Position numbers and translations under genes: made by a program. A DNA stretch of 9,284 nt, from the IMG/VR virus record IMGVR_UViG_2778261085_000014; one strand, 5' to 3'. Shown here piece after piece: positions 1 to 9,284 of the stretch; within the stretch, counting starts at the first letter, position 1, and each line of letters starts with the position of its first letter. The notes beneath the pieces are model-generated. The model was given only the letters and a program-made list of their open reading frames with translations, ran no database searches and had not been told where the DNA came from. This stretch comes from a virus (Duplodnaviria; Heunggongvirae; Uroviricota; Caudoviricetes).

Positions 1-51
1 AACAAATCAAAAGGGGTTTTAATAACTGGCTCAAAGCTGAAAGCTTTCCGG

Positions 52-81
52 AACCCCCAGCCTAGCTGGGGGTTTTCTGTG
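52..81 (+). terminator. Rho-independent terminator-like hairpin: stem AACCCCCAGC / GCTGGGGGTT, 3-nt loop CTA, then TTCTGT
   Basis: Perfect 10-bp GC-rich inverted repeat (52-61 / 65-74) followed by a T-rich run on the plus strand; the minus-strand side has no T-tract. Likely ends a plus-strand gene lying upstream of the window. Confidence 0.5.
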
Positions 82-744
82 CACAAAAAAGTTTTATCTT
101 TACTAAAGATAAAACATAATAATTATGCTGCAGCGCTGAATTTTGACAACAAAATATATGAACCAGCAAATATTGTTGCAAATGAGCTCAGGAAGAAAAA
201 CAAAAAATTAGTTATATTTAACCCTTATGGCTCTCAGAATAGCAGAACCTTATCTGATGAACAGATAAACAAAGTACTAGCTTACCTTAATAACCTTAAG
301 GGATATCACACAATAGTTTTTAATATGGGAAAACAGATTAATCACAATGGATTGGATAATGTGTCTCTATCTCCATTTTCTGATGCAGGATGTTCATTTG
401 CATTGGTTCGTCATGCTGATTTTGTTATAACTGTAGATACTGCTATTGTACATTTAGCCAGTGCATTAAACATTAAACAATACTGTATATATAATAACAG
501 AATGCATGAAGGAAAATTCGAAAACAATATTGTGTGGGGGCCAAACAGCAAATTAGCGACTCAACTCACCACATCCGAACATCTAAGGTCTGAAGGGGGC
601 GACGATATGCATAAATTCGACATAATGATCTTAATTAATGCTATCAAACAAGATTTGACAAACGATATACCGAATTACCACTCGGATTTAGGTTGTAAAA
701 ATAGATCCAGAAACCCAGAATTAGAAAGTAGCAATTCTTTATAA
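79..744 (+). CDS. AT-rich ORF encoding a glycosyltransferase family 9 (heptosyltransferase-like) C-terminal domain; probably 5'-truncated or a stand-alone domain; start uncertain (GTG at 79)
   Basis: Translation contains KKLVIFNPYGS and ADFVITVDTAIVHLASAL, which resemble the nucleotide-sugar-binding C-domain of LPS heptosyltransferases such as WaaC (compared from memory). Only about 40 residues precede the C-domain motif, so the N-terminal acceptor domain appears absent. The frame is open back to position 1, but a GC-rich hairpin sits immediately 5'. Composition is visibly AT-rich against the adjacent GC-rich tail genes. Confidence 0.5.
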   Translation: MHKKVLSLLKIKHNNYAAALNFDNKIYEPANIVANELRKKNKKLVIFNPYGSQNSRTLSDEQINKVLAYLNNLKGYHTIVFNMGKQINHNGLDNVSLSPFSDAGCSFALVRHADFVITVDTAIVHLASALNIKQYCIYNNRMHEGKFENNIVWGPNSKLATQLTTSEHLRSEGGDDMHKFDIMILINAIKQDLTNDIPNYHSDLGCKNRSRNPELESSNSL

Positions 745-780: not shown

Positions 781-831
781 ATATTATATAACAACAAGCC
801 GCCCATTACCCAATATGAGGGTATTGGCGGC
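781..831 (-). terminator. Putative terminator of the tail operon after U: imperfect GC-rich hairpin followed by a T-rich tract on the minus strand
   Basis: Minus strand just after the U stop reads GCCGCCAATACCC-tcatatt-GGGTAATGGGCGGC then TTGTTGTTATATAATAT. Arms span 798-811 and 819-831 with one mismatch and one bulge. Confidence 0.4.
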
Positions 832-840
832 AATGTAAAA

Positions 841-1335
841 TCAGAACAGTCCTTTAACTGAACTGGCCGCGCTGTTAAGGGATGATGTCACCTTATCTTT
901 GAAGCCGGACAGCATATCGCTGAACGATGAGGATTGCAGGCGCTCCCGCAAATCCTCATCACAGCGTTCAAGAGTCAGTGAAAATTCTATCTTTTTCGCC
1001 TTACCGTAGCGATCAAACTCGGAGCGGGTCGTATTCGTTTCAGTCAGGACATACATGCCGTAAATCTGCCCGACACCATCAATCAGAGGCCAGGGCCGCC
1101 CTGTATATGCCTGCGTGGTCAGCAGCGACAGCGACACTTCGCCACCTGTAATTTCAGGATAAAGCACACCAGAAAGAACGATGCGATCATCACCTGCACC
1201 GATATACTGCCAGCTTGCTGAACGGTTAACGCGTTCATTTTTCACATGCCGCCAGCTTTTGTTTTGCTGTAACTGCTGATGCGGCAGTGTGCGCAGCTCA
1301 AAAACAAACATGCCGTAGATCATCATCATGGCCAT
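841..1335 (-). CDS. U: Phage tail protein, P2 gpU-like
   Basis: 164-aa ORF starting 6 nt after the tape-measure stop, in the position and size expected for P2 gpU (downstream of T in the FI-FII-E-T-U-D operon); assignment is by position and size, no specific motif checked. Confidence 0.75.
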   Translation of the reverse strand: MAMMMIYGMFVFELRTLPHQQLQQNKSWRHVKNERVNRSASWQYIGAGDDRIVLSGVLYPEITGGEVSLSLLTTQAYTGRPWPLIDGVGQIYGMYVLTETNTTRSEFDRYGKAKKIEFSLTLERCDEDLRERLQSSSFSDMLSGFKDKVTSSLNSAASSVKGLF

Positions 1336-1341
1336 GACTCC

Positions 1342-4185
1342 TCAATCTTTATCGTAAAAACTTCCACGCCCGGCACGGGCGCGCCGTTCCATTTCTGCCC
1401 TGACCATTTCACCGACCAGTTTCGCCAGTTCGCGGGGATTCTGCGTAACAACGTTATGCAGATGAACATGAATTTCACCGCCAAATCCGGAGGCAACAGG
1501 CTCCCGGTTACGGGAAGTTGCAGGAACTGATGCCACTGGCGATCGTATGGCCTCTGCCACCGGGCGGGAGCTGGCCGCAACAACAGGGACCAGCGCCGGA
1601 GGCAGCGGAGCCGGAACCACAGGTGTGATATTAATTGCGGGGGCAGGCTTACTGACCTGCGCAATCTTCCGCTCCTGCCACTCCCCACGAACAGCAAGTG
1701 CGCGGGGCAGGTTCTTAAAGACAATATCGCCGGGGCCAATGCGTTTTTTCGTCTCATCAACCAGCTTACCTGTGTTATCAGCAATTTTGCTGAGTCTGCG
1801 CAGCGTACCGGTATTGCTGTCTGTGAGCGGTTTATTGTCTTTGGAGTTATCACCTCCGGTGCCATTGCCATTTTCCACAGGCTTCGGCGGATTGATTTTC
1901 GCCAGGTCCCCCTGAAGCAAGGCAACCTTGTCCTGAAGAATGGCCGCACGCTGTGCGTCTTCGATTTTCTTGCGCGCCCTTTCCGCTTCATCCGGAAGGA
2001 CGCCAAGTTTTTCAAGTATCCACGCCAGCGTATCCAGCAGCATTTTGGCAGGTGTCAGAACAAGCTGTAACGCACCGCCAAGAACGTTACCGAATATCTC
2101 GCCAGCACTGGTACATTTATCCAGCGTTTCCTTGCTGGACTCCATCGGTGACAGCAGCGATTTAAACCAGTTAAACACCTGGCTGATCCCGCTCCCGATT
2201 GCGTCAAAAACAGGACCAAACCGTTCAAAGGTTTCGCGCAACGGGGCCAGCCTTTCCATAATCCCGCTGAACACCCCGGCAAAAAATGCCCTGATGGGAT
2301 CCCAGTATTTCCAGATAAGAACGGCAGCTCCGGCAAGCGCAGCCACGATAAGACCAACCGGACTGAACAACGCCCCGATAGCGCCTCCCAGCAAAGAAAC
2401 AGAACCCGCCACCATTCCCCACAGCGCAGGCAACACCCTGACGACATTCATTGACCGGGTAAGAATGTCAAAACCAAGACGCAGGGTGGCCAGCTTCCCG
2501 TAAAGCACCCCAATAACCAGCGACAACGAGCCAATCGTTGCAGTCATTGCCAGCAACGCACCGCCTGCTATCAGTAGCTGGCGCGTCAGTACCGGATGGG
2601 CCTGCGCCAGCGAGGTGATTTTTTCAAGCACCCGCGTGAGCCACTGCGTGACAGAACGCAGCGGACCGTCAACCAGATCACTGATGCGAATACGAAGACC
2701 TTCCCATGCGCTGTCGAGATTTTTCAGGTCCCCATCAAGATTATCGGCCATTACTTTTGCAACGCGATCGGCCTCTCCCCTTGCCCCCTGCAATTCTCTG
2801 GTCAGTTTTTGCAGCTCTCCTGAACCAGCCGCCGCAACAAGCGTCTGCAAACCAACGAACGCCTCTTCTCCGGCGATGTCCTTGAAGAAGGAGACCTGGT
2901 CCACCTGTCCGTATTTTTGTGTCGCCTTATAAAGATCAAGCAGCACATCCTCCATCGGGCGCATTTTGCCTCTGGCGTCAGCAACTGACACCCCCAGCTC
3001 TTTCAGTGCATCAGCCGCAGCTTTTGGCGGTGATGCAAGGCGGGACAGACTTGCGCGCATGGCCGTACCAGCATCGCTTCCGCGAAGACCATTATTGGCA
3101 AGCATCCCGGCCATGGCCGCCGCTTCTTCAAGACTGATACCAAGTTTTGCGGCAACCGGACCGGTATACTTCATGGTTTCGCCCAGCGCGCGTAAATCAG
3201 TATTGGTCCGGGTGAATACTGCTGTCAGCGTATCGCCAACCCGGTCCATTTGATCGGCTGTCAGGTTGAACTGTGTGAGGATATTGGAGCCTATATCAGC
3301 CGTCTCGCCGAGTTCGACGCCACCTGCCAGCGCCATATTAAGAACACCGGGCAATGCGGCCTGAATGGCCTGCGGAGTAAAACCAGCCATTGCCAGAAAA
3401 CTCTGCCCACTGGCGGCATCACTCGCAGTAAACTGTGTTTCAGAGCCAAGTTTTAACGCCTGCTCACGCAGCGCCTTAAACTGCGGGCTGTTTTTGTCGA
3501 TTCGCGTCAGTGCCTGAACGCGGGACATCTCTTTCCCGAACCCGATCGCGGGCTGCAAAAAACGTCCGGCAGCATAGCCGCCAGCCGCTGCCGCACCAAT
3601 TGCCAGCGCACCACCTGTTTTCAGTTTTCCCGCAGTTTCCTGCGCGCGCGAATACCGCTCACGCGCCCGCGTTACACGCGCAAGCGCCTGCCGTTCGCGT
3701 TCAAGCTGGTTGTTGTATTGTTCGGTGCGTCTGATGGCCTGCTGAATGGTGTTATCGCTGCCTGTCAGGGAAATGCCGTGGCGTTTCAGCTCTCCGCCAA
3801 GCTCCCGCATTTTCTGAATTTCCCGTGTGCGCGATTCATTCAGGCGTTCAAGCCGGGTGCTTAACTGCTGCATCAGCTTTTGTTGTTTTTCGCTGAGCAC
3901 TGTACCCGTGCGTTGTAACTGATTAAGGGCGTTAAGCTGGCGTCGTGCTTTCACGATACCCGCATCCGCTTTACTGACAGCGTCGCGGGCGCGCTCAAAT
4001 GAACGCGCCTGACGCTCGAGATTTTTGATCGCCCCCTGCGTTCGCTGGATGGAGTCACCAAACTGCCCCATCAGGCGGCGGGCGTTTTCGGCAGGCCGGG
4101 TCAGCCTGTCAACGGCGCTGAAAGCGACCCGGATATCAAGAGTCTTCATTGTCTGCATTCCCGCTGCGAAGTGCCGCCCGCTCAC
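1342..4185 (-). CDS. T: Tail tape measure protein, P2 gpT-like
   Basis: 947-aa ORF with a coiled-coil-like N-terminal region, a conserved tape-measure core (for example LTAVFTRTNTDLRALGETMKYTGPVAAKLGISLEEAAAMAGMLANNGLRGSDAGTAMRASLSRL), long hydrophobic Gly/Ala-rich segments and a Pro/Ala/Val-rich C-terminal stretch. Its start overlaps the E' frame as in P2. The start codon could be the internal Met at MQTMKT. Confidence 0.9.
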   Translation of the reverse strand: MSGRHFAAGMQTMKTLDIRVAFSAVDRLTRPAENARRLMGQFGDSIQRTQGAIKNLERQARSFERARDAVSKADAGIVKARRQLNALNQLQRTGTVLSEKQQKLMQQLSTRLERLNESRTREIQKMRELGGELKRHGISLTGSDNTIQQAIRRTEQYNNQLERERQALARVTRARERYSRAQETAGKLKTGGALAIGAAAAGGYAAGRFLQPAIGFGKEMSRVQALTRIDKNSPQFKALREQALKLGSETQFTASDAASGQSFLAMAGFTPQAIQAALPGVLNMALAGGVELGETADIGSNILTQFNLTADQMDRVGDTLTAVFTRTNTDLRALGETMKYTGPVAAKLGISLEEAAAMAGMLANNGLRGSDAGTAMRASLSRLASPPKAAADALKELGVSVADARGKMRPMEDVLLDLYKATQKYGQVDQVSFFKDIAGEEAFVGLQTLVAAAGSGELQKLTRELQGARGEADRVAKVMADNLDGDLKNLDSAWEGLRIRISDLVDGPLRSVTQWLTRVLEKITSLAQAHPVLTRQLLIAGGALLAMTATIGSLSLVIGVLYGKLATLRLGFDILTRSMNVVRVLPALWGMVAGSVSLLGGAIGALFSPVGLIVAALAGAAVLIWKYWDPIRAFFAGVFSGIMERLAPLRETFERFGPVFDAIGSGISQVFNWFKSLLSPMESSKETLDKCTSAGEIFGNVLGGALQLVLTPAKMLLDTLAWILEKLGVLPDEAERARKKIEDAQRAAILQDKVALLQGDLAKINPPKPVENGNGTGGDNSKDNKPLTDSNTGTLRRLSKIADNTGKLVDETKKRIGPGDIVFKNLPRALAVRGEWQERKIAQVSKPAPAINITPVVPAPLPPALVPVVAASSRPVAEAIRSPVASVPATSRNREPVASGFGGEIHVHLHNVVTQNPRELAKLVGEMVRAEMERRARAGRGSFYDKD

Positions 4186-4665
4186 GCCAGCTAACCACTT
4201 CGCCGGGCGTCATCATGAAGATTTCGGCGGGCGACCAGTTAAAAATAACGGCAATATCTGCCACAAAGTCTTCTATGTGCTCAAAGCACACAACCGTGAT
4301 CAGGCTTCCGTCGCCTGTTCGTTCTTCCCGCCAGAGTCCGCACCGCTCAAAAAATTTACGGCAACCACACATAACTGAATAAAGTCACGGGATGCCATTT
4401 TTTTGATCGTCACTTCATCCAGTCGCGGTGATGTCACGCGTGACAGCAGCGTAAACATGGATTCCGCTTTCAGATTCAGCACATCAGACAGCGACAAATC
4501 TCGCAGAGATCCAGCCTGCTCAATAGCTCCAGTGATCTCCACATACGTGATTTTTTCGCCGCCTCGCTCAATTGATTGGGTAAGTTTTACGCCACGCTCA
4601 CTGGTTTCTTTCACAGTGTCAGCAACGACCGTGTTTTCGGTATCGATGTTTTTCGTCTCTTTCAT
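4136..4665 (-). CDS. Tail assembly chaperone E+E' fusion made by programmed -1 ribosomal frameshift (E frame 4665 to about 4351, then E' frame to 4136)
   Basis: The E frame (stop at 4300) and the overlapping 78-codon E' frame (4372-4136) share the heptamer T TTT TTG at 4348-4354 on the minus strand. In the E frame it reads AAT TTT TTG (N F L); a -1 slip gives TTT TTT GAG, which continues in the E' frame. Same arrangement as P2 E/E' and lambda G/GT. Confidence 0.6.
4300..4665 (-). CDS. E: Tail assembly chaperone, P2 gpE-like (unshifted product)
   Basis: 121-aa acidic ORF between tube and tape-measure genes. Strong SD (AAGGAG) 7 nt upstream of the ATG on the minus strand. Slippery heptamer near its 3' end. 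Confidence 0.75.
   Translation of the reverse strand: MKETKNIDTENTVVADTVKETSERGVKLTQSIERGGEKITYVEITGAIEQAGSLRDLSLSDVLNLKAESMFTLLSRVTSPRLDEVTIKKMASRDFIQLCVVAVNFLSGADSGGKNEQATEA
4348..4354 (-). other. Slippery heptamer T TTT TTG for the E to E+E' -1 frameshift
   Basis: Plus strand CAAAAAA at 4348-4354 equals minus strand TTTTTTG, lying exactly in the E/E' overlap with the phase that shifts the E frame into the E' frame. Confidence 0.6.
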
Positions 4666-4719
4666 CAGGAAACTCCTTTCAGTCAGAGGCGACGCACTGC
4701 GCCGCCTGCATATTACTTA

Positions 4720-5232
4720 TCAGCCAAGCCCGAGCGCAGAACGGATGCGATCGGGCACAATGTCCTTGCCGTCCTTCCGGTAAATGAAGTTCAGCAGGTC
4801 AATCTCCCACAACGGGCGATCGTTAACACTCAGCTTGTAGTAGGTGTTTTTAATGGCGTAAGTGTGTGATGTGGCTTCGCCCTGTTTGGCTTCCCCCATA
4901 TCAATTTCCGTCACACGTCCGCGCATTTCGACTTCATACAGGTCGCTTTCTGCATCGGTGTAATATTCACCCGCAAAACGCAGCAGCGTGCCATCAATCG
5001 TGCCGCCATACTTAAGGAACAGCTCACGAACTGCGCCCCCCATGACAAAGCTCGCATCAAGCGCGGAGTCGTCCAGACCGAGATCAATACTTACCGCACC
5101 CATCATGCCACCACCCCGGTAGCTGTCGGTTTTGCGCGTCAGCTTAGGCAGAGTGACGGACGTCACCTTACCCACTTCGTTTTCACCATCCACAAACAGC
5201 GTAAAAAAGCGAAGATGTTTTGGCACAGCCAT
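4720..5232 (-). CDS. FII: Contractile tail tube protein, P2 gpFII-like
   Basis: 170-aa ORF directly downstream of the sheath gene. Its start overlaps the sheath stop (minus strand TGATG at 5230-5234), suggesting translational coupling. Size and position match P2 FII. Confidence 0.9.
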   Translation of the reverse strand: MAVPKHLRFFTLFVDGENEVGKVTSVTLPKLTRKTDSYRGGGMMGAVSIDLGLDDSALDASFVMGGAVRELFLKYGGTIDGTLLRFAGEYYTDAESDLYEVEMRGRVTEIDMGEAKQGEATSHTYAIKNTYYKLSVNDRPLWEIDLLNFIYRKDGKDIVPDRIRSALGLG

Positions 5233-6416
5233 CAGGCACCTCCCAGCACCGCAAATGCGGGTTCAAAGTATTCATCAGTAAACGTCTGGTAAAGCTCCAT
5301 GTCTTCCAGTGGCGGAACGGGCGTATATTTGTAGCGAATACGCACACGTCCCTGACGTAAATCCGTGGTGCTGTTATCCACCACGTCATACCAGCACTCC
5401 GCGCCAATCAGTTTCCCGGCAGTCACCAGCGAATCCAGTTTTGCCCTGATGGCACTGATAACATCCTTCACGTTCGCAGGCGTCAGTGGACTGTCGATGG
5501 TTTCAAACTGCGCTTCCGCAATTGAATCAGCCAGCACCTGTGCGGTTCGGGTATACACCTCAAAGATGTAGGCGTTCGTTTCCGGTGTGCGGTTGCCCCA
5601 GAAGCGGAACCCGTTGCGACGAATAATGGTCGTGATTTCTTTGTTGTTAAGGCTGTTGGCATCACTGTCTTCGGCCTGCAACGACCAGAAAACATGCCTC
5701 GACATCCCCAGCACATTTTTAACCGGAACGTTGGACAGCGATTTGTGCCATCCCTGCTCATGGTCAATGTACGCACGAAGACCGCACGCATAGGCAGGCG
5801 CGGGGAACGTTTCGTTTTTGCCACTTTTCGGGTTGTAGGCGATGAAGTCCGGCCATAAGAGCATCACCTCACGTTCGTTGAATTTCTGGCGGTAGGTAAT
5901 CGCCGCAGCCATCGTGTTACAGCCGTGACATGAGGCATACACAAACGCGCGCAGTTTACCTGCAATCACGCACAGGGATTTTGTTACAGCCTCCGTGTCC
6001 AGCTCCGGCGCGGCCAGAATACGCGGACGGTATCCGATGCTTTCATCCTGCTCTGCAACAAGCAGCGCATACATCCCCGTATAGCTGCCGTCATCCTCAG
6101 AACCACCGATAACCAGTTGATCCTGCGTCTTTCCGTCTTCTTCTTTGTGTTCAGCCACGCGAACGACGATCACCTTTGTGCTCACCTGGTCTGCGATGGC
6201 CTTAAGCGCACGATAAAGCGTCCCCGTTGTCCCGCATTTTCCCAGCACGTCATTGACGCGGGTCAGCAGTGTGGGCTTGTTCAGCGGGAACAGCTTCGCG
6301 TCCGCATCATCCGCCGTTGCCACGATACCGATAACGCTGGAATCAACATCGTTAATCGCTGTTACCAGGTCGGTATTTTCCGTAACACGGGCACCATGAA
6401 AACGAGTTTCACTCAT
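5232..6416 (-). CDS. FI: Contractile tail sheath protein, P2 gpFI-like
   Basis: 394-aa ORF with AAGGGG SD upstream of the ATG on the minus strand. Size, position (first gene of the operon, followed by tube) and translation fit the tail sheath family. Confidence 0.9.
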   Translation of the reverse strand: MSETRFHGARVTENTDLVTAINDVDSSVIGIVATADDADAKLFPLNKPTLLTRVNDVLGKCGTTGTLYRALKAIADQVSTKVIVVRVAEHKEEDGKTQDQLVIGGSEDDGSYTGMYALLVAEQDESIGYRPRILAAPELDTEAVTKSLCVIAGKLRAFVYASCHGCNTMAAAITYRQKFNEREVMLLWPDFIAYNPKSGKNETFPAPAYACGLRAYIDHEQGWHKSLSNVPVKNVLGMSRHVFWSLQAEDSDANSLNNKEITTIIRRNGFRFWGNRTPETNAYIFEVYTRTAQVLADSIAEAQFETIDSPLTPANVKDVISAIRAKLDSLVTAGKLIGAECWYDVVDNSTTDLRQGRVRIRYKYTPVPPLEDMELYQTFTDEYFEPAFAVLGGA

Positions 6417-6573
6417 AGCTTCAGCCCCTTGTATCCGTTAAATGATTCGGCAACAATCATCACCCACCACGCGCGTAATCTCACCCCTGCGCCATTCTCC
6501 CGCCACGGCGACAACAAAAAGCAGTAACCCCCTCCGCACGTACATGCGACCATGCCACACAGGGAGGGAGCAG

Positions 6574-7683
6574 ATGACCGACACCACCATGCAATTGCTC
6601 AGTCAGGGCACAGACCCCGTAAAAATGCCGGATTTTGATATTCTCGCGGAGGGTAAAACGCTGTCAGGCGTGGCAGAGCGCCTGATGAGCCTGTCACTGA
6701 CCGACAACCGGGGATTTGAGGCAGACCAGCTCACCATCACGCTGGATGATGCGGATGGTCAGTTGCAGCTACCGCCACGGGGCGCACGCCTGACGGTTCT
6801 CATTGGCTGGAAAGGCGAACCGCTGACAGAAAAAGGCACTTACATTGTTGATGAAATCGCTCACGAAGGACCACCGGACAGGCTGACTGTTTCAGCCAGA
6901 AGCGCAGATTTTCGGGATGAATTTAACGTTAAACGAGAGGTGTCCTGGCATGATGTGACCGTTGAGCGTGTGGTATCCGCCATCGCTCATCGGTACGGTC
7001 TGAAACCGCAAATCAGCGAAATGCTGATGGATATCGAAATCGACCACGCCGACCAGACCGAAGAAAGCGACATGTCCTTCCTTACGCGCATGGCGGAAAT
7101 GCTGGGCGCAATCACCACGGTAAAAAGCGGCAATCTGTTATTCATCATGCCAGGTGGTGGCGTGAACGCGCAGGGCCAGCCGTTGCCCTCGTTCGCCATT
7201 ACACGCAGCAGCGGCGATCGCCATCAGTTCCGCATTGCTGACCGCGAAGCGTATACGGGGGTACGCGCTTACTGGCTTGATCTTAATTACGGGAAAAAGA
7301 AAAAAGTCAGCGTGAAACGCCGCAAACCGCCAAAACCCAAAAAGGAGAAAAGCAGCAGCCGTGAAGGTGATTATATGGAAGGCGCGGAAGGCAATGTGTT
7401 TGTGTTACGCAAGACTTATCAGAACGAGCAGGCAGCAAGACGCGCAGCGGCGGCAAAGTGGCAGCAGCTACAACGCGGAGCCGCATCATTCTCCATCACA
7501 CTGGCACGCGGACGCGCAGAACTCTACCCCGAAATGCATGGCACGGTAACAGGATTTAAAAGCGAGATTGATAATCAGGACTGGATTATTGCAAAAGCCG
7601 AGCACACCATTGATAACAGTGGCTTTACCACGCAGCTTGAGCTTGAAGCCAAAATCCCGGAATGGATAGCAGAAACAGAGTAA
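6574..7683 (+). CDS. D: Phage late control gene D protein (gpD, Mu gpP-like tail/baseplate protein)
   Basis: Translation contains blocks typical of the gpD family (RLMSLSLTDNRGFEADQLTITLDDADGQ, SARSADFR, SWHD) and a Lys-rich linker. Start chosen at ATG 6574, which has an AGGGAGGG SD 5 nt upstream; the ORF track's 6442 is just the first in-frame ATG. Confidence 0.85.
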   Translation: MTDTTMQLLSQGTDPVKMPDFDILAEGKTLSGVAERLMSLSLTDNRGFEADQLTITLDDADGQLQLPPRGARLTVLIGWKGEPLTEKGTYIVDEIAHEGPPDRLTVSARSADFRDEFNVKREVSWHDVTVERVVSAIAHRYGLKPQISEMLMDIEIDHADQTEESDMSFLTRMAEMLGAITTVKSGNLLFIMPGGGVNAQGQPLPSFAITRSSGDRHQFRIADREAYTGVRAYWLDLNYGKKKKVSVKRRKPPKPKKEKSSSREGDYMEGAEGNVFVLRKTYQNEQAARRAAAAKWQQLQRGAASFSITLARGRAELYPEMHGTVTGFKSEIDNQDWIIAKAEHTIDNSGFTTQLELEAKIPEWIAETE

Positions 7684-7877
7684 ACAACTTAGATGCATTA
7701 GCCCTGACATTTGCTAACGCGCTTACAGCAAGAATCATAACCAATCTGACAGCCTACCCGGTGTCAAAATCAGAAGAGCCTTACATTAGAATATGTTAAT
7801 TTGTAGCAAACAAATTTACACACAAATGATTACTGCTGAAATAGCCCCCATAAATGCTATGTCAAAGGATCCATGTT

Positions 7878-8543
7878 ATGAATATGCAAATTTTTATCGC
7901 ACCAGCAGCCACAGTTGCTGCAGTCTGCCTTGCTGCATATTTTGCTTTACGAAATGAACGTAAAAAGAAAGCACTTGAGATTAGAACAACTCAACTAGAT
8001 CGAATATCTGAGCTAGTAAACCGAGCATCTACCAATTTGATGCAATATACAGGTACTCTTGCCTCTATACTGGAAGCGCACGCCAAAGATAATTATCTAC
8101 CGAACAAAAAATTTGACATTAATGTAATTAGCAAATGGAAAGATTGCCTCGATGAGAGTGAGGTCTGGGCGATTGATATACAGCAACTAAGAACATGTCA
8201 GCACAGTCTGGAGTTTCATCGTGAAAAAGAATGGGCTGAATGGAAAAAAATAATTCCACCATTACTTGATAAAATTAACCAATTTTTTCTCATATCTAAG
8301 CCAGGGCAACCTGTTACGTTTATAAATGGCCAAAACAAAACAGCTGATGAACTACTTGTTTTCTCAAGATATTTGAGAAAACAAACAGCAGAAATTGAAT
8401 CAGTACGTCAGCTGTTACTTTCTCAAATGAGAGAGGAATTCATCGAGTTAACTAGCTTTGAACCTGTCACAATGTTTAGCTTATTTAAATCAATAAAGAA
8501 AAATGTCATGCAATTTTTCTGTATCAGTGCTCTTAAAAATTGA
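7878..8543 (+). CDS. Hypothetical membrane-anchored protein with no recognised family; AT-rich cargo gene inserted between D and ogr
   Basis: Uninterrupted 221-codon frame from ATG 7878, with SD-like AAAGGA at 7864-7869 (8-nt spacer). N-terminal hydrophobic helix IFIAPAATVAAVCLAAYFAL followed by a basic stretch, then a charged soluble domain of about 190 aa. Markedly AT-rich versus flanking D and ogr, and followed by its own terminator. Confidence 0.65.
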   Translation: MNMQIFIAPAATVAAVCLAAYFALRNERKKKALEIRTTQLDRISELVNRASTNLMQYTGTLASILEAHAKDNYLPNKKFDINVISKWKDCLDESEVWAIDIQQLRTCQHSLEFHREKEWAEWKKIIPPLLDKINQFFLISKPGQPVTFINGQNKTADELLVFSRYLRKQTAEIESVRQLLLSQMREEFIELTSFEPVTMFSLFKSIKKNVMQFFCISALKN

Positions 8544-8558: not shown

Positions 8559-8589
8559 AACCCCAGTGTTAAACTGGGGTTATTCTTGC
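8559..8589 (+). terminator. Rho-independent terminator-like hairpin after the AT-rich gene: stem AACCCCAGT / ACTGGGGTT, loop GTTAA, then ATTCTTGC
   Basis: Perfect 9-bp inverted repeat at 8559-8567 / 8573-8581, 16 nt after the stop codon, followed by a T-rich tail. Confidence 0.55.
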
Positions 8590-8692: not shown

Positions 8693-8953
8693 ATGTTCCG
8701 TTGTCCGCTTTGTGGCGCATCTGCCCGTATCCGCACCAGTCGTCCGGAAAATGATTCAAACACCGTGCGGCAAAAGTATTACCAGTGTAACAACCTGGAA
8801 TGCGGCGTATGCTTCTCAACACTGGAAGCTTTCCATAAATTCACATCGAAACACGCCTCCGGCATCTACTCTTCAGAAGGTATCCCGTGGCATGAGCTGC
8901 CAGCTTCACACAGGGGAAACAATCAGATGAGCTTGCCTTTACCTCAGAATTAA
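8693..8953 (+). CDS. ogr: Ogr/Delta-family zinc-finger late transcription activator
   Basis: 86-aa ORF starting MFRCPLCGASARIRTSR...YYQCNNLECGVCF, with the Cys-x2-Cys ... Cys-x4-Cys arrangement and N-terminal MF-CPLC signature of P2 Ogr. Strong SD AAGGGAGG 5 nt before the ATG. Confidence 0.85.
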   Translation: MFRCPLCGASARIRTSRPENDSNTVRQKYYQCNNLECGVCFSTLEAFHKFTSKHASGIYSSEGIPWHELPASHRGNNQMSLPLPQN

Positions 8954-9013
8954 CAGGCAGAATTGCCGGAGTAACAAAAAAGCGATAGATTACGCGCGGG
9001 TGCCTTTCGGCTG

Positions 9014-9226
9014 ATGGTCGGAGGGAATACCCGAAGGCCAGATGTGGAAAGGCCCCGGAAAACATCTCTGTTTAACCGAGGCCCTAACCGCATTACCTTG
9101 ACAAGTGAAAGGTTAGCGCCTCTCCGGAAAAGGAGCAAGTGCTATGTCGCAAAAATCGCTTACGGCCATCACGTTCTGCGTGACGGCAATCCTCATCATC
9201 TGGATGTTGCACGGTTCGCTGTGTGA
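9014..9226 (+). CDS. mok-like reading frame overlapping the hok-like toxin gene; true start uncertain
   Basis: 70-codon frame beginning about 130 nt upstream of the hok-like ATG and ending inside it in a different frame, mirroring the mok/hok overlap of plasmid R1 hok/sok. Called from architecture only. Confidence 0.25.
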   Translation: MVGGNTRRPDVERPRKTSLFNRGPNRITLTSERLAPLRKRSKCYVAKIAYGHHVLRDGNPHHLDVARFAV

Positions 9227-9284
9227 AATACGGATGAGCTTCTGGGGAGCGGAGTTTGCGGCGTTCTTACAGTGTAAGCAGTAA
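9144..9284 (+). CDS. Hok/Gef-family type I toxin (small membrane-depolarising peptide)
   Basis: Manual translation gives the 46-aa peptide MSQKSLTAITFCVTAILIIWMLHGSLCEIRMSFWGAEFAAFLQCKQ. It has an N-terminal transmembrane helix followed by the SLCEIR and E-x-AAF motifs characteristic of Hok/Gef peptides. AAGGAG SD 8 nt upstream. The stop TAA is the last codon of the window. Too short for the supplied ORF track. Confidence 0.65.
   Translation: MSQKSLTAITFCVTAILIIWMLHGSLCEIRMSFWGAEFAAFLQCKQ

Follow-up and report, generated by a model that had tools for sequence, protein, structure and literature searches.

Late transcription in phage P2 uses the activator Ogr and also requires the alpha subunit of RNA polymerase. 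In the late F operon of this phage, the tail genes FI, FII, E/E', T and U are followed by D as the last gene, which directly adjoins the end of U and lacks a separate promoter; ogr comes after D, and the P2 annotation lists an E+E' frameshift as well as a single terminator for the ogr transcript and the F operon. The activator consensus of the P2 late promoters is TGT-N12-ACA (PMC3931495; P2 annotation). At pP/pO, the annotation places one activator site (3057-3087) between divergent starts at 3016 and 3127, which are 111 nt apart and each about 55 nt from its centre; this pair serves the packaging and head genes only. The record of Escherichia phage P88 reads differently, with an invertase gene on the plus strand, U-T-E'-E-FII-FI on the minus strand, and then D (plus strand) and hok; ogr is missing from the deposited annotation and was placed by tblastn between D and hok (34476-34733). 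The present study deals with a stretch of 9,284 nt from a virus of the Caudoviricetes (IMG/VR record IMGVR_UViG_2778261085_000014), called the window at its full length, in which the tail genes FI to U run opposite to D and ogr. We put the probability at roughly 0.8 that it represents the right-hand end, with tail and late-control genes, of a P88-like prophage of the P2 family, with a gene order fixed by a single inversion and an FI-D spacer resembling PP/PO.

The genes of this end were called from the listing of open reading frames (ORFs) and from Pfam scans:

841-1335, minus strand: gpU tail gene (Pfam PF06995, 5.5e-39), the terminal gene of the minus-strand operon.
1342-4185, minus strand: gpT tape-measure gene (PF10145, 1.7e-56), 4185 being the start of the longest ORF.
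4300-4665, minus strand: gpE, a tail protein of PHROG 103.
4136-4665, minus strand: predicted E+E' product of a -1 frameshift (PF06528, GpE, on the -1 frame, which runs to 4136).
4720-5232, minus strand: FII tail tube gene (PF04985, 7.5e-47).
5232-6416, minus strand: FI tail sheath gene (PF04984, PF22671, PF17482), which opens the minus-strand operon.
6574-7683, plus strand: gpD, baseplate hub or 'late control D' (PF05954; PHROG 52, 2e-166), divergent from FI.
8693-8953, plus strand: ogr-like gene for a zinc-finger late activator (PF04606, 5.1e-14), co-oriented with D.

The homologues of FI, FII, E/E', T, U, D and Ogr all have Pfam or PHROG matches, and the seven proteins were found to be 30-49% identical to their P2 counterparts. 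The initial annotation had described a minus-strand FI-U operon (841-6416) with D and ogr on the plus strand, and the ORFs and Pfam matches agree with it at every coordinate; the D start likewise diverges from the FI start at a distance of 158 nt (ATG at 6416 and ATG at 6574), which leaves a spacer of 157 bp. The longest ORF of gpD begins at 6442, and the ATG at 6574, preceded by GGGAGGGAG, is the annotated D start of P88. For gpT, the ATG at 4149 probably corresponds to the start annotated in P88. The window shares with the P2 F operon the same genes, the same E/E' frameshift heptamer TTTTTTG, an activator-type site some 70 nt ahead of the FI ATG and the position of ogr downstream of D. The slippery heptamer is read in frame at 4354-4348 on the minus strand, at the E/E' junction, and a programmed -1 frameshift of the P2 type is predicted at this T-run. 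The P2 order, in which D directly follows U in the same direction, was not found; instead, the D of the window is split off, divergent from FI and lies about 5.2 kb from U. Past U no D-like sequence was detected, as had been noted earlier, and leftward there are only a hairpin, the remnant of a glycosyltransferase-9 gene and an IS200-like end.

The distribution of this order was surveyed in 170 loci, for which D-encoding regions with 9-10 kb flanks were fetched from one genome per GTDB species and from IMG/VR, and FI, FII, E, T, U, D and ogr were located in each by tblastn. All 142 informative loci with a D at least 61% identical to that of the window have the inverted order, and they come from many Enterobacterales genera. 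The GTDB species survey alone contributes 59 of 59 loci at this identity, and each of the 79 informative contigs from IMG/VR is inverted; in the named phages and GTDB loci taken together, the order is inverted in 63/63 loci with D 61-100% identical and of the P2 type in 27/27 loci with D 43-54% identical. Hosts of the inverted type are Salmonella, Edwardsiella, Symbiopectobacterium, Serratia, Kluyvera, Erwinia, Mixta, Enterobacter, Pantoea, Kosakonia, Citrobacter, Pectobacterium, Brenneria, Klebsiella, Raoultella, Yokenella, Xenorhabdus, Photorhabdus, Providencia, Morganella, Hafnia, Yersinia and Rouxiella. The identities of the other two proteins compared with those of the window also fall in disjoint ranges, 54-99.5% in inverted against 39-51% in P2-order loci for FI, and 52-100% against 34-49% for U.

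Three simple neighbour-joining trees, one each for D, FI and U, were rooted on Dobby (a Pseudomonas phage), RSY1 (Ralstonia) and phiMhaA1 (Mannheimia); in every tree the inverted loci are monophyletic with zero P2-type members inside. The inversion of the FI-U block relative to D-ogr, one of the explanations offered by the initial annotation, is seen against these three outgroups and against P2, Fels-2 and Cartapus, which have the canonical co-directional FI...U-D-ogr. Because the outgroups carry the P2 order, this order is taken to be the ancestral one. Fels-2/SopE-phi had been a candidate for sharing the inversion; for Fels-2 this was ruled out, as it has the P2 order. Within the clade, D identity tracks the identity of FI and of U (Spearman rho 0.85-0.90). 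Since the three trees each give one clade and the identities are correlated, the sequences point to one old inversion which has been inherited as a unit, and not to a mosaic, a recent event or an assembly artefact.

The same order is present in phages which have already been classified. In megablast searches against phage genomes, the window was found to be 92-98% identical to Escherichia phages P88, 500465-2, PhiR44_2 and P884B11 and Citrobacter phage phiSM, all belonging to Xuanwuvirus of the Peduoviridae. ICTV genera by practice group phages with about 70% or more identity over the whole genome, and the window, which matches P88 at 95.3% along 6,868 nt and at 96.2% along 625 nt, covers 9.3 kb of a genome with flanks that differ. 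The identity of 92-98% extends over U through D and over ogr-hok, and the gene order and the layout of the 157-bp FI-D spacer are identical to those of Xuanwuvirus; gpU is 99-100% identical to its counterparts in P88 and an E. coli prophage, and gpD is 99% identical to gpD of P88. The window differs from these relatives in having a glycosyltransferase-9 gene, apparently interrupted by an IS200-like end, left of U, where their flank holds the invertase and tail fibre genes, and in a 1-kb insert between D and ogr, which contains an ORF of 229 aa. The inverted order is annotated in Salmonella phage SEN5 (Senquatrovirus), and tblastn has located it in the unannotated record of Klebsiella phage Kp4871-3 (Reginaelenavirus). 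SEN4/SEN5 and Kp4871-3 also share the central TGT-N12-ACA of the FI-D spacer, as an exact match where the window has TCT, and their proteins are 46-70% identical to those of the window. At least 80% of the window was found in 1012 of 5426 complete E. coli genomes; in one example the prophage sits between btuC and ihfA.

The layout had by implication been presented as an anomaly of this prophage, and this description does not hold, as it is the standard order in P88 and Xuanwuvirus, in SEN4/5 and Senquatrovirus, in a Reginaelenavirus phage and in the 142 loci. The doubt whether such a prophage can produce particles is not supported either: P88 is reported to have been induced and to lyse E. coli strains, and phiSM to form plaques (PMC5285337, PMC6456863), from which it follows that the inverted order is compatible with particle production.

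The spacers of 58 distinct relatives were aligned, and the region between FI and D was found to have the following elements:

6417-6573 (157 bp), unstranded: FI-D spacer, proposed as a bidirectional late promoter region.
6496-6513, unstranded: candidate Ogr site TCTCCCGCCACGGCGACA, T[G/C]T-N12-ACA, centred between 6504 and 6505, with one mismatch to TGT-N12-ACA.
6456-6461, minus strand: predicted FI -10 hexamer GATGAT, fitting the xAxxAT consensus 35-40 nt from the site edge, with a start predicted near 6449.
6545-6553, plus strand: predicted extended -10 of D, TGcGACCAT, from the site-anchored consensus, with a start predicted near 6560.

In this alignment a core of T.T-N12-ACA with conserved flanking arms stands out from otherwise variable sequence. 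T[G/C]T-N12-ACA occurs at the same aligned position in 54 of the 58 spacers, mostly as exact TGT-N12-ACA, and TCTCCCGCCACGGCGACA is common to the window and its close relatives. When the spacers are anchored on the site, a conserved xAxxAT hexamer appears 35-40 nt from the site edge on both sides, and on the D side a TG at 32-33 nt is conserved as well, in line with an extended -10 (tG.aA.caT as consensus, at 32-40 nt). The predicted D start near 6560 is just upstream of the GGGAGGGAG ribosome-binding site, and the centre of the site, with its one mismatch, is about 55-56 nt upstream of each predicted, unmapped start; between the two predicted starts there would be about 111 nt. A recognisable -10 is available in the form of xAxxAT on both sides, and -35-like bases are only weak. 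The element also has its own gene for a cognate C4 zinc-finger activator (ogr, 8693-8953).

The layout resembles P2 PP/PO in having one dyad-type site midway between divergent late units, about 55 nt from each start (predicted in the window), with coding regions 157 bp apart compared with 173 bp in P2; as PP/PO is confined to packaging and head genes, the window would carry a second copy of this layout for the tail genes FI and D. Across all 35.8 kb of P88, hexamers that are two-sided and correctly spaced were found only at the sites of the P-O and FI-D spacers. The P-O site of P88 (14216-14233) reads TCT-N12-ACA followed by ACAAAA, as at the FI-D site, and GTTCT-N12-ACAACAAAA is also present in the P-O spacer. 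SEN5, covered over nt 1-29,978 of its 33.5-kb genome, likewise has two-sided sites only at P-O and FI-D, both of them exact TGT-N12-ACA. In the clade, the distance from the site to the FI ATG is 65-79 nt (median 73), and in P2-type enterobacterial loci the PF site is 67-76 nt upstream of the FI ATG; because of this matching geometry, PF and its site appear to have moved together with FI. The initial annotation had reasoned that D would need its own promoter in this region, and the conserved Ogr-type site with a correctly spaced -10 on the D side is in line with it: D probably has its own Ogr-dependent promoter, which shares the activator site of FI.

The proposed end of the leftward transcript lies just beyond U:

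781-831, minus strand: intrinsic-terminator-like hairpin with a GC-rich core stem-loop of 34 nt (798-831), proposed as the end of the FI-U operon.

A terminator-like hairpin had been reported at this place, and on the U-sense strand the stem-loop is indeed followed by the T-rich tail TTGTTGTTATATAATATA (797-781), with a 43-nt fold of -20.8 kcal/mol. A hairpin with T-tail within 110 nt past U at -12 kcal/mol or lower is present in 36/58 distinct clade sequences compared with 24/122 control segments taken from inside T; at -8 kcal/mol or lower the counts are 46/58 and 41/122. The hairpin sequences vary between lineages, and it is the feature which is enriched in the relatives. The FI-U transcript may be taken, tentatively, to terminate at 798-831, with its 3' ends predicted at about 781-797.

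These observations can be arranged into one course of events. The order U-T-E/E'-FII-FI leftward and D-(cargo)-ogr rightward is ancestral to, and fixed in, a large Enterobacterales branch of the Peduoviridae, and it arose once, by inversion of the segment from the PF promoter through U. Such an inversion would have placed the dyad-symmetric Ogr-binding site of PF beside D, and a -10 at the mirror position could then have allowed the site to serve both directions. The central site at 6496-6513 would feed two divergent weak sigma-70 promoters resembling P2 PP/PO: the leftward one for FI-FII-E/E'-T-U, ending at the hairpin, and the rightward one for D, normally reading on into ogr. On balance, we favour the view that the ancient inversion of PF-FI...U turned the PF site into a second bidirectional Ogr-dependent promoter, PF/PD. 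Both the binding of Ogr and the transcription starts in the spacer are predictions from conserved motifs.

The mosaic which the initial annotation had considered, a tail module FI-U joined to a remnant D-ogr as two unrelated or independently acquired elements, could account for the opposite orientation of the two units, the low-GC cargo on both flanks and the IS200-like end at the left edge of the window. It is scarcely credible, as complete circular phage genomes hold both units in this order, D, FI and U place the inverted loci in the same clade in three trees with identity ranges disjoint between the arrangement types, and D has diverged in step with FI and U at the correlation given above. 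Moreover, the FI-D spacer is conserved from end to end, and this includes elements to either side of the central site. A recent strain-specific inversion, or a segment that is actively flipped by a phage invertase of the Gin/Cin type, is suggested by the DNA invertase gene which adjoins the U end of the block in P88 and several relatives and adjoins FI in Fels-2 and Cartapus. Against this, every one of the informative loci with D at least 61% identical is inverted and none is in the other state; inverted repeats were looked for at the block ends and not found, and the window and SEN5 have no annotated invertase beside the block. Further, the P2 order would join U to D without the spacer, so the two states are not simply interconvertible, and we consider this explanation very improbable.

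The reading preferred here, of an old inversion with a shared promoter site, has some points to its disadvantage. The search for exact TGT-N12-ACA gave 0 matches in the window, where the site reads TCT, a null that is misleading because the alignment of relatives shows the site as TCT-N12-ACA. The D-side hexamer GACCAT is weak, and a sigma-70 consensus scan listed no promoter in the FI-D spacer. The trees have no bootstrap support. For the hairpin, folding of its 76-nt context yields -21.6 kcal/mol (z = -1.7 compared with shuffles), an unexceptional energy; a simple terminator scan did not list it, and the loose criterion is also satisfied by 20-34% of the control segments. The weak hexamer and the site one base off consensus would also suit a D gene that is independent of Ogr, with the central site used by FI only and D read from a constitutive, early or other promoter. 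This is unlikely in our judgement, since the D-side arm is conserved equally with the FI-side arm, including the A and T of the hexamer at 35-40 nt and the upstream TG; an identical two-sided layout is present at the P-O spacer of P88 and SEN5, and it is the layout of the experimentally annotated P2 pO/pP. In P2, gpD is an essential tail protein of the late F operon, for which late timing is expected.

On the rightward side, D and ogr are normally adjacent across the clade, as in P2: the ogr start is at most 150 nt past the D stop in 127/140 clade loci, with a median of 47 nt; the P88 gap measures 42 nt. The remaining 13 carry 1-4 kb at this place, as does the window with its 1-kb cargo insertion, and from these 13 inserts the D-ogr gap can be regarded as a cargo hot spot. 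The insert of the window contains the following frame, for which Pfam, PHROGs, PADLOC and NCBIfam gave no match:

7854-8543, plus strand: low-GC ORF of 229 aa, inside the D-ogr insert.

The terminator scan listed a terminator-like hairpin at 8559-8581, at the end of the insert, which may interrupt read-through into ogr in the window. The Ogr homologue itself has 86 aa with cysteines spaced C4-X2-C7-X24-C32-X4-C37. The cysteine spacing of P2 Ogr is CX2CX22CX4C (PMC3931495), which makes the loop of the window protein (CX2CX24CX4C) two residues longer. In the P88-group phage genome, TCT stands in place of TGT as one half-site at both bidirectional sites, P-O and FI-D. Beyond ogr, the right-hand extremity of the prophage holds a toxin locus of the hok/gef type (about 8977-9284, plus strand), which shares about 83% identity with the hok loci of Stx phages; its coding sequence (about 9144-9284, projected from the annotation of E. 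coli AR_0119) is cut by the window end, and no Rfam family reached its gathering score in this region.

On the left flank, positions 79-744 (plus strand) encode the C-terminal part of a family-9 glycosyltransferase (heptosyltransferase-like; PHROG 36326) with a low GC content of 33%. This remnant lies where P88 has its DNA invertase, flanked by the tail-fibre genes and by the 3' end of U, and the gene is probably lysogenic-conversion cargo. An intact gene of 393 aa occupies the same location in E. coli AR_0119 and other strains. Window positions 1-84 begin with 74 nt that score 77 bits for Rfam STnc490 on the minus strand, above the gathering score of 56; we take this family to be the IS200 antisense RNA art200, and the hairpin aacccccagcctagctgggggtt is also present. 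The glycosyltransferase gene appears to be interrupted by an IS200-like element, because similarity to the intact E. coli gene begins only at position 85; the junction between the two was found in no complete E. coli genome searched.

Some records met during the survey are of separate interest. In the degraded prophage of E. coli AR_0119 (NZ_CP021535.1, survey locus L002, 26490-27599), RefSeq gives D as 801 nt plus a small pseudogene, and tblastn has shown a full-length D frame 100% identical to D of the window; this looks like a start-site or annotation problem, not a truncated gene. A contig labelled Vagococcus sp. WN89Y, a Gram-positive genus label (L009, NZ_JBQPOM010000071.1), carries a P88-type region with D 98% identical to that of the window and about 93% nucleotide identity over U through D, and the assembly is likely to be contaminated or mislabelled. 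A single chromosome of Symbiopectobacterium purcellii has three inverted-type copies (L012, L013, L017), and that of Salmonella enterica strain s1 has a P88-like copy (D 99%) together with a SEN5-like copy (D 64%) (L008, L049). The P2-type tail loci of Xenorhabdus and Photorhabdus are also inverted (L041, L044, L047, L052, L054-L057, L061), and they may be xenorhabdicin (xnp1) tailocin loci or complete prophages. The phiSM paper describes, in a figure legend, a long non-contractile tail of the siphovirus type (PMC6456863); the phiSM genome (OR565851.1), by contrast, has a P88-like sequence, belongs by classification to the P2-like relatives and agrees with the sheath and tube block of the window at about 93%.

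The P88-type tail and late-control region is already known from public annotated genomes, ICTV genera and phages that have been isolated and grown. The order is common in classified phages and in more than 1000 complete E. coli genomes, which leaves little weight for discovery. Casjens & Grose 2016 is cited in PMC5261728 as having defined the SEN4/5 subcluster. In the text of the P88, phiSM, SEN4/5 and Serratia PP4 papers the inversion or orientation is not mentioned, and the PF/PD proposal was met in no paper, in a search that excluded Casjens & Grose 2016 and the papers on the xenorhabdicin locus. Explicit statements that the order is a marker of a clade with a single origin and that the spacer between FI and D resembles PP/PO may not be in print; both are modest additions to well-understood P2 biology.

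For annotation, this study advises against taking a divergent D in a P2-like prophage for a sign of decay or mosaicism. For classification, the arrangement is a clean single-origin marker which parts a large Enterobacterales clade of the Peduoviridae from P2, 186 and Fels-2-type phages. With respect to regulation, the locus may illustrate, in nature, how a dyad activator site is put to use again for a new divergent promoter once an inversion has taken place. If the PF/PD proposal is true, D would have its own late transcription unit, and ogr would lie 1-2 kb, and not about 6 kb, past a late promoter, which would shorten the positive-feedback path of Ogr.

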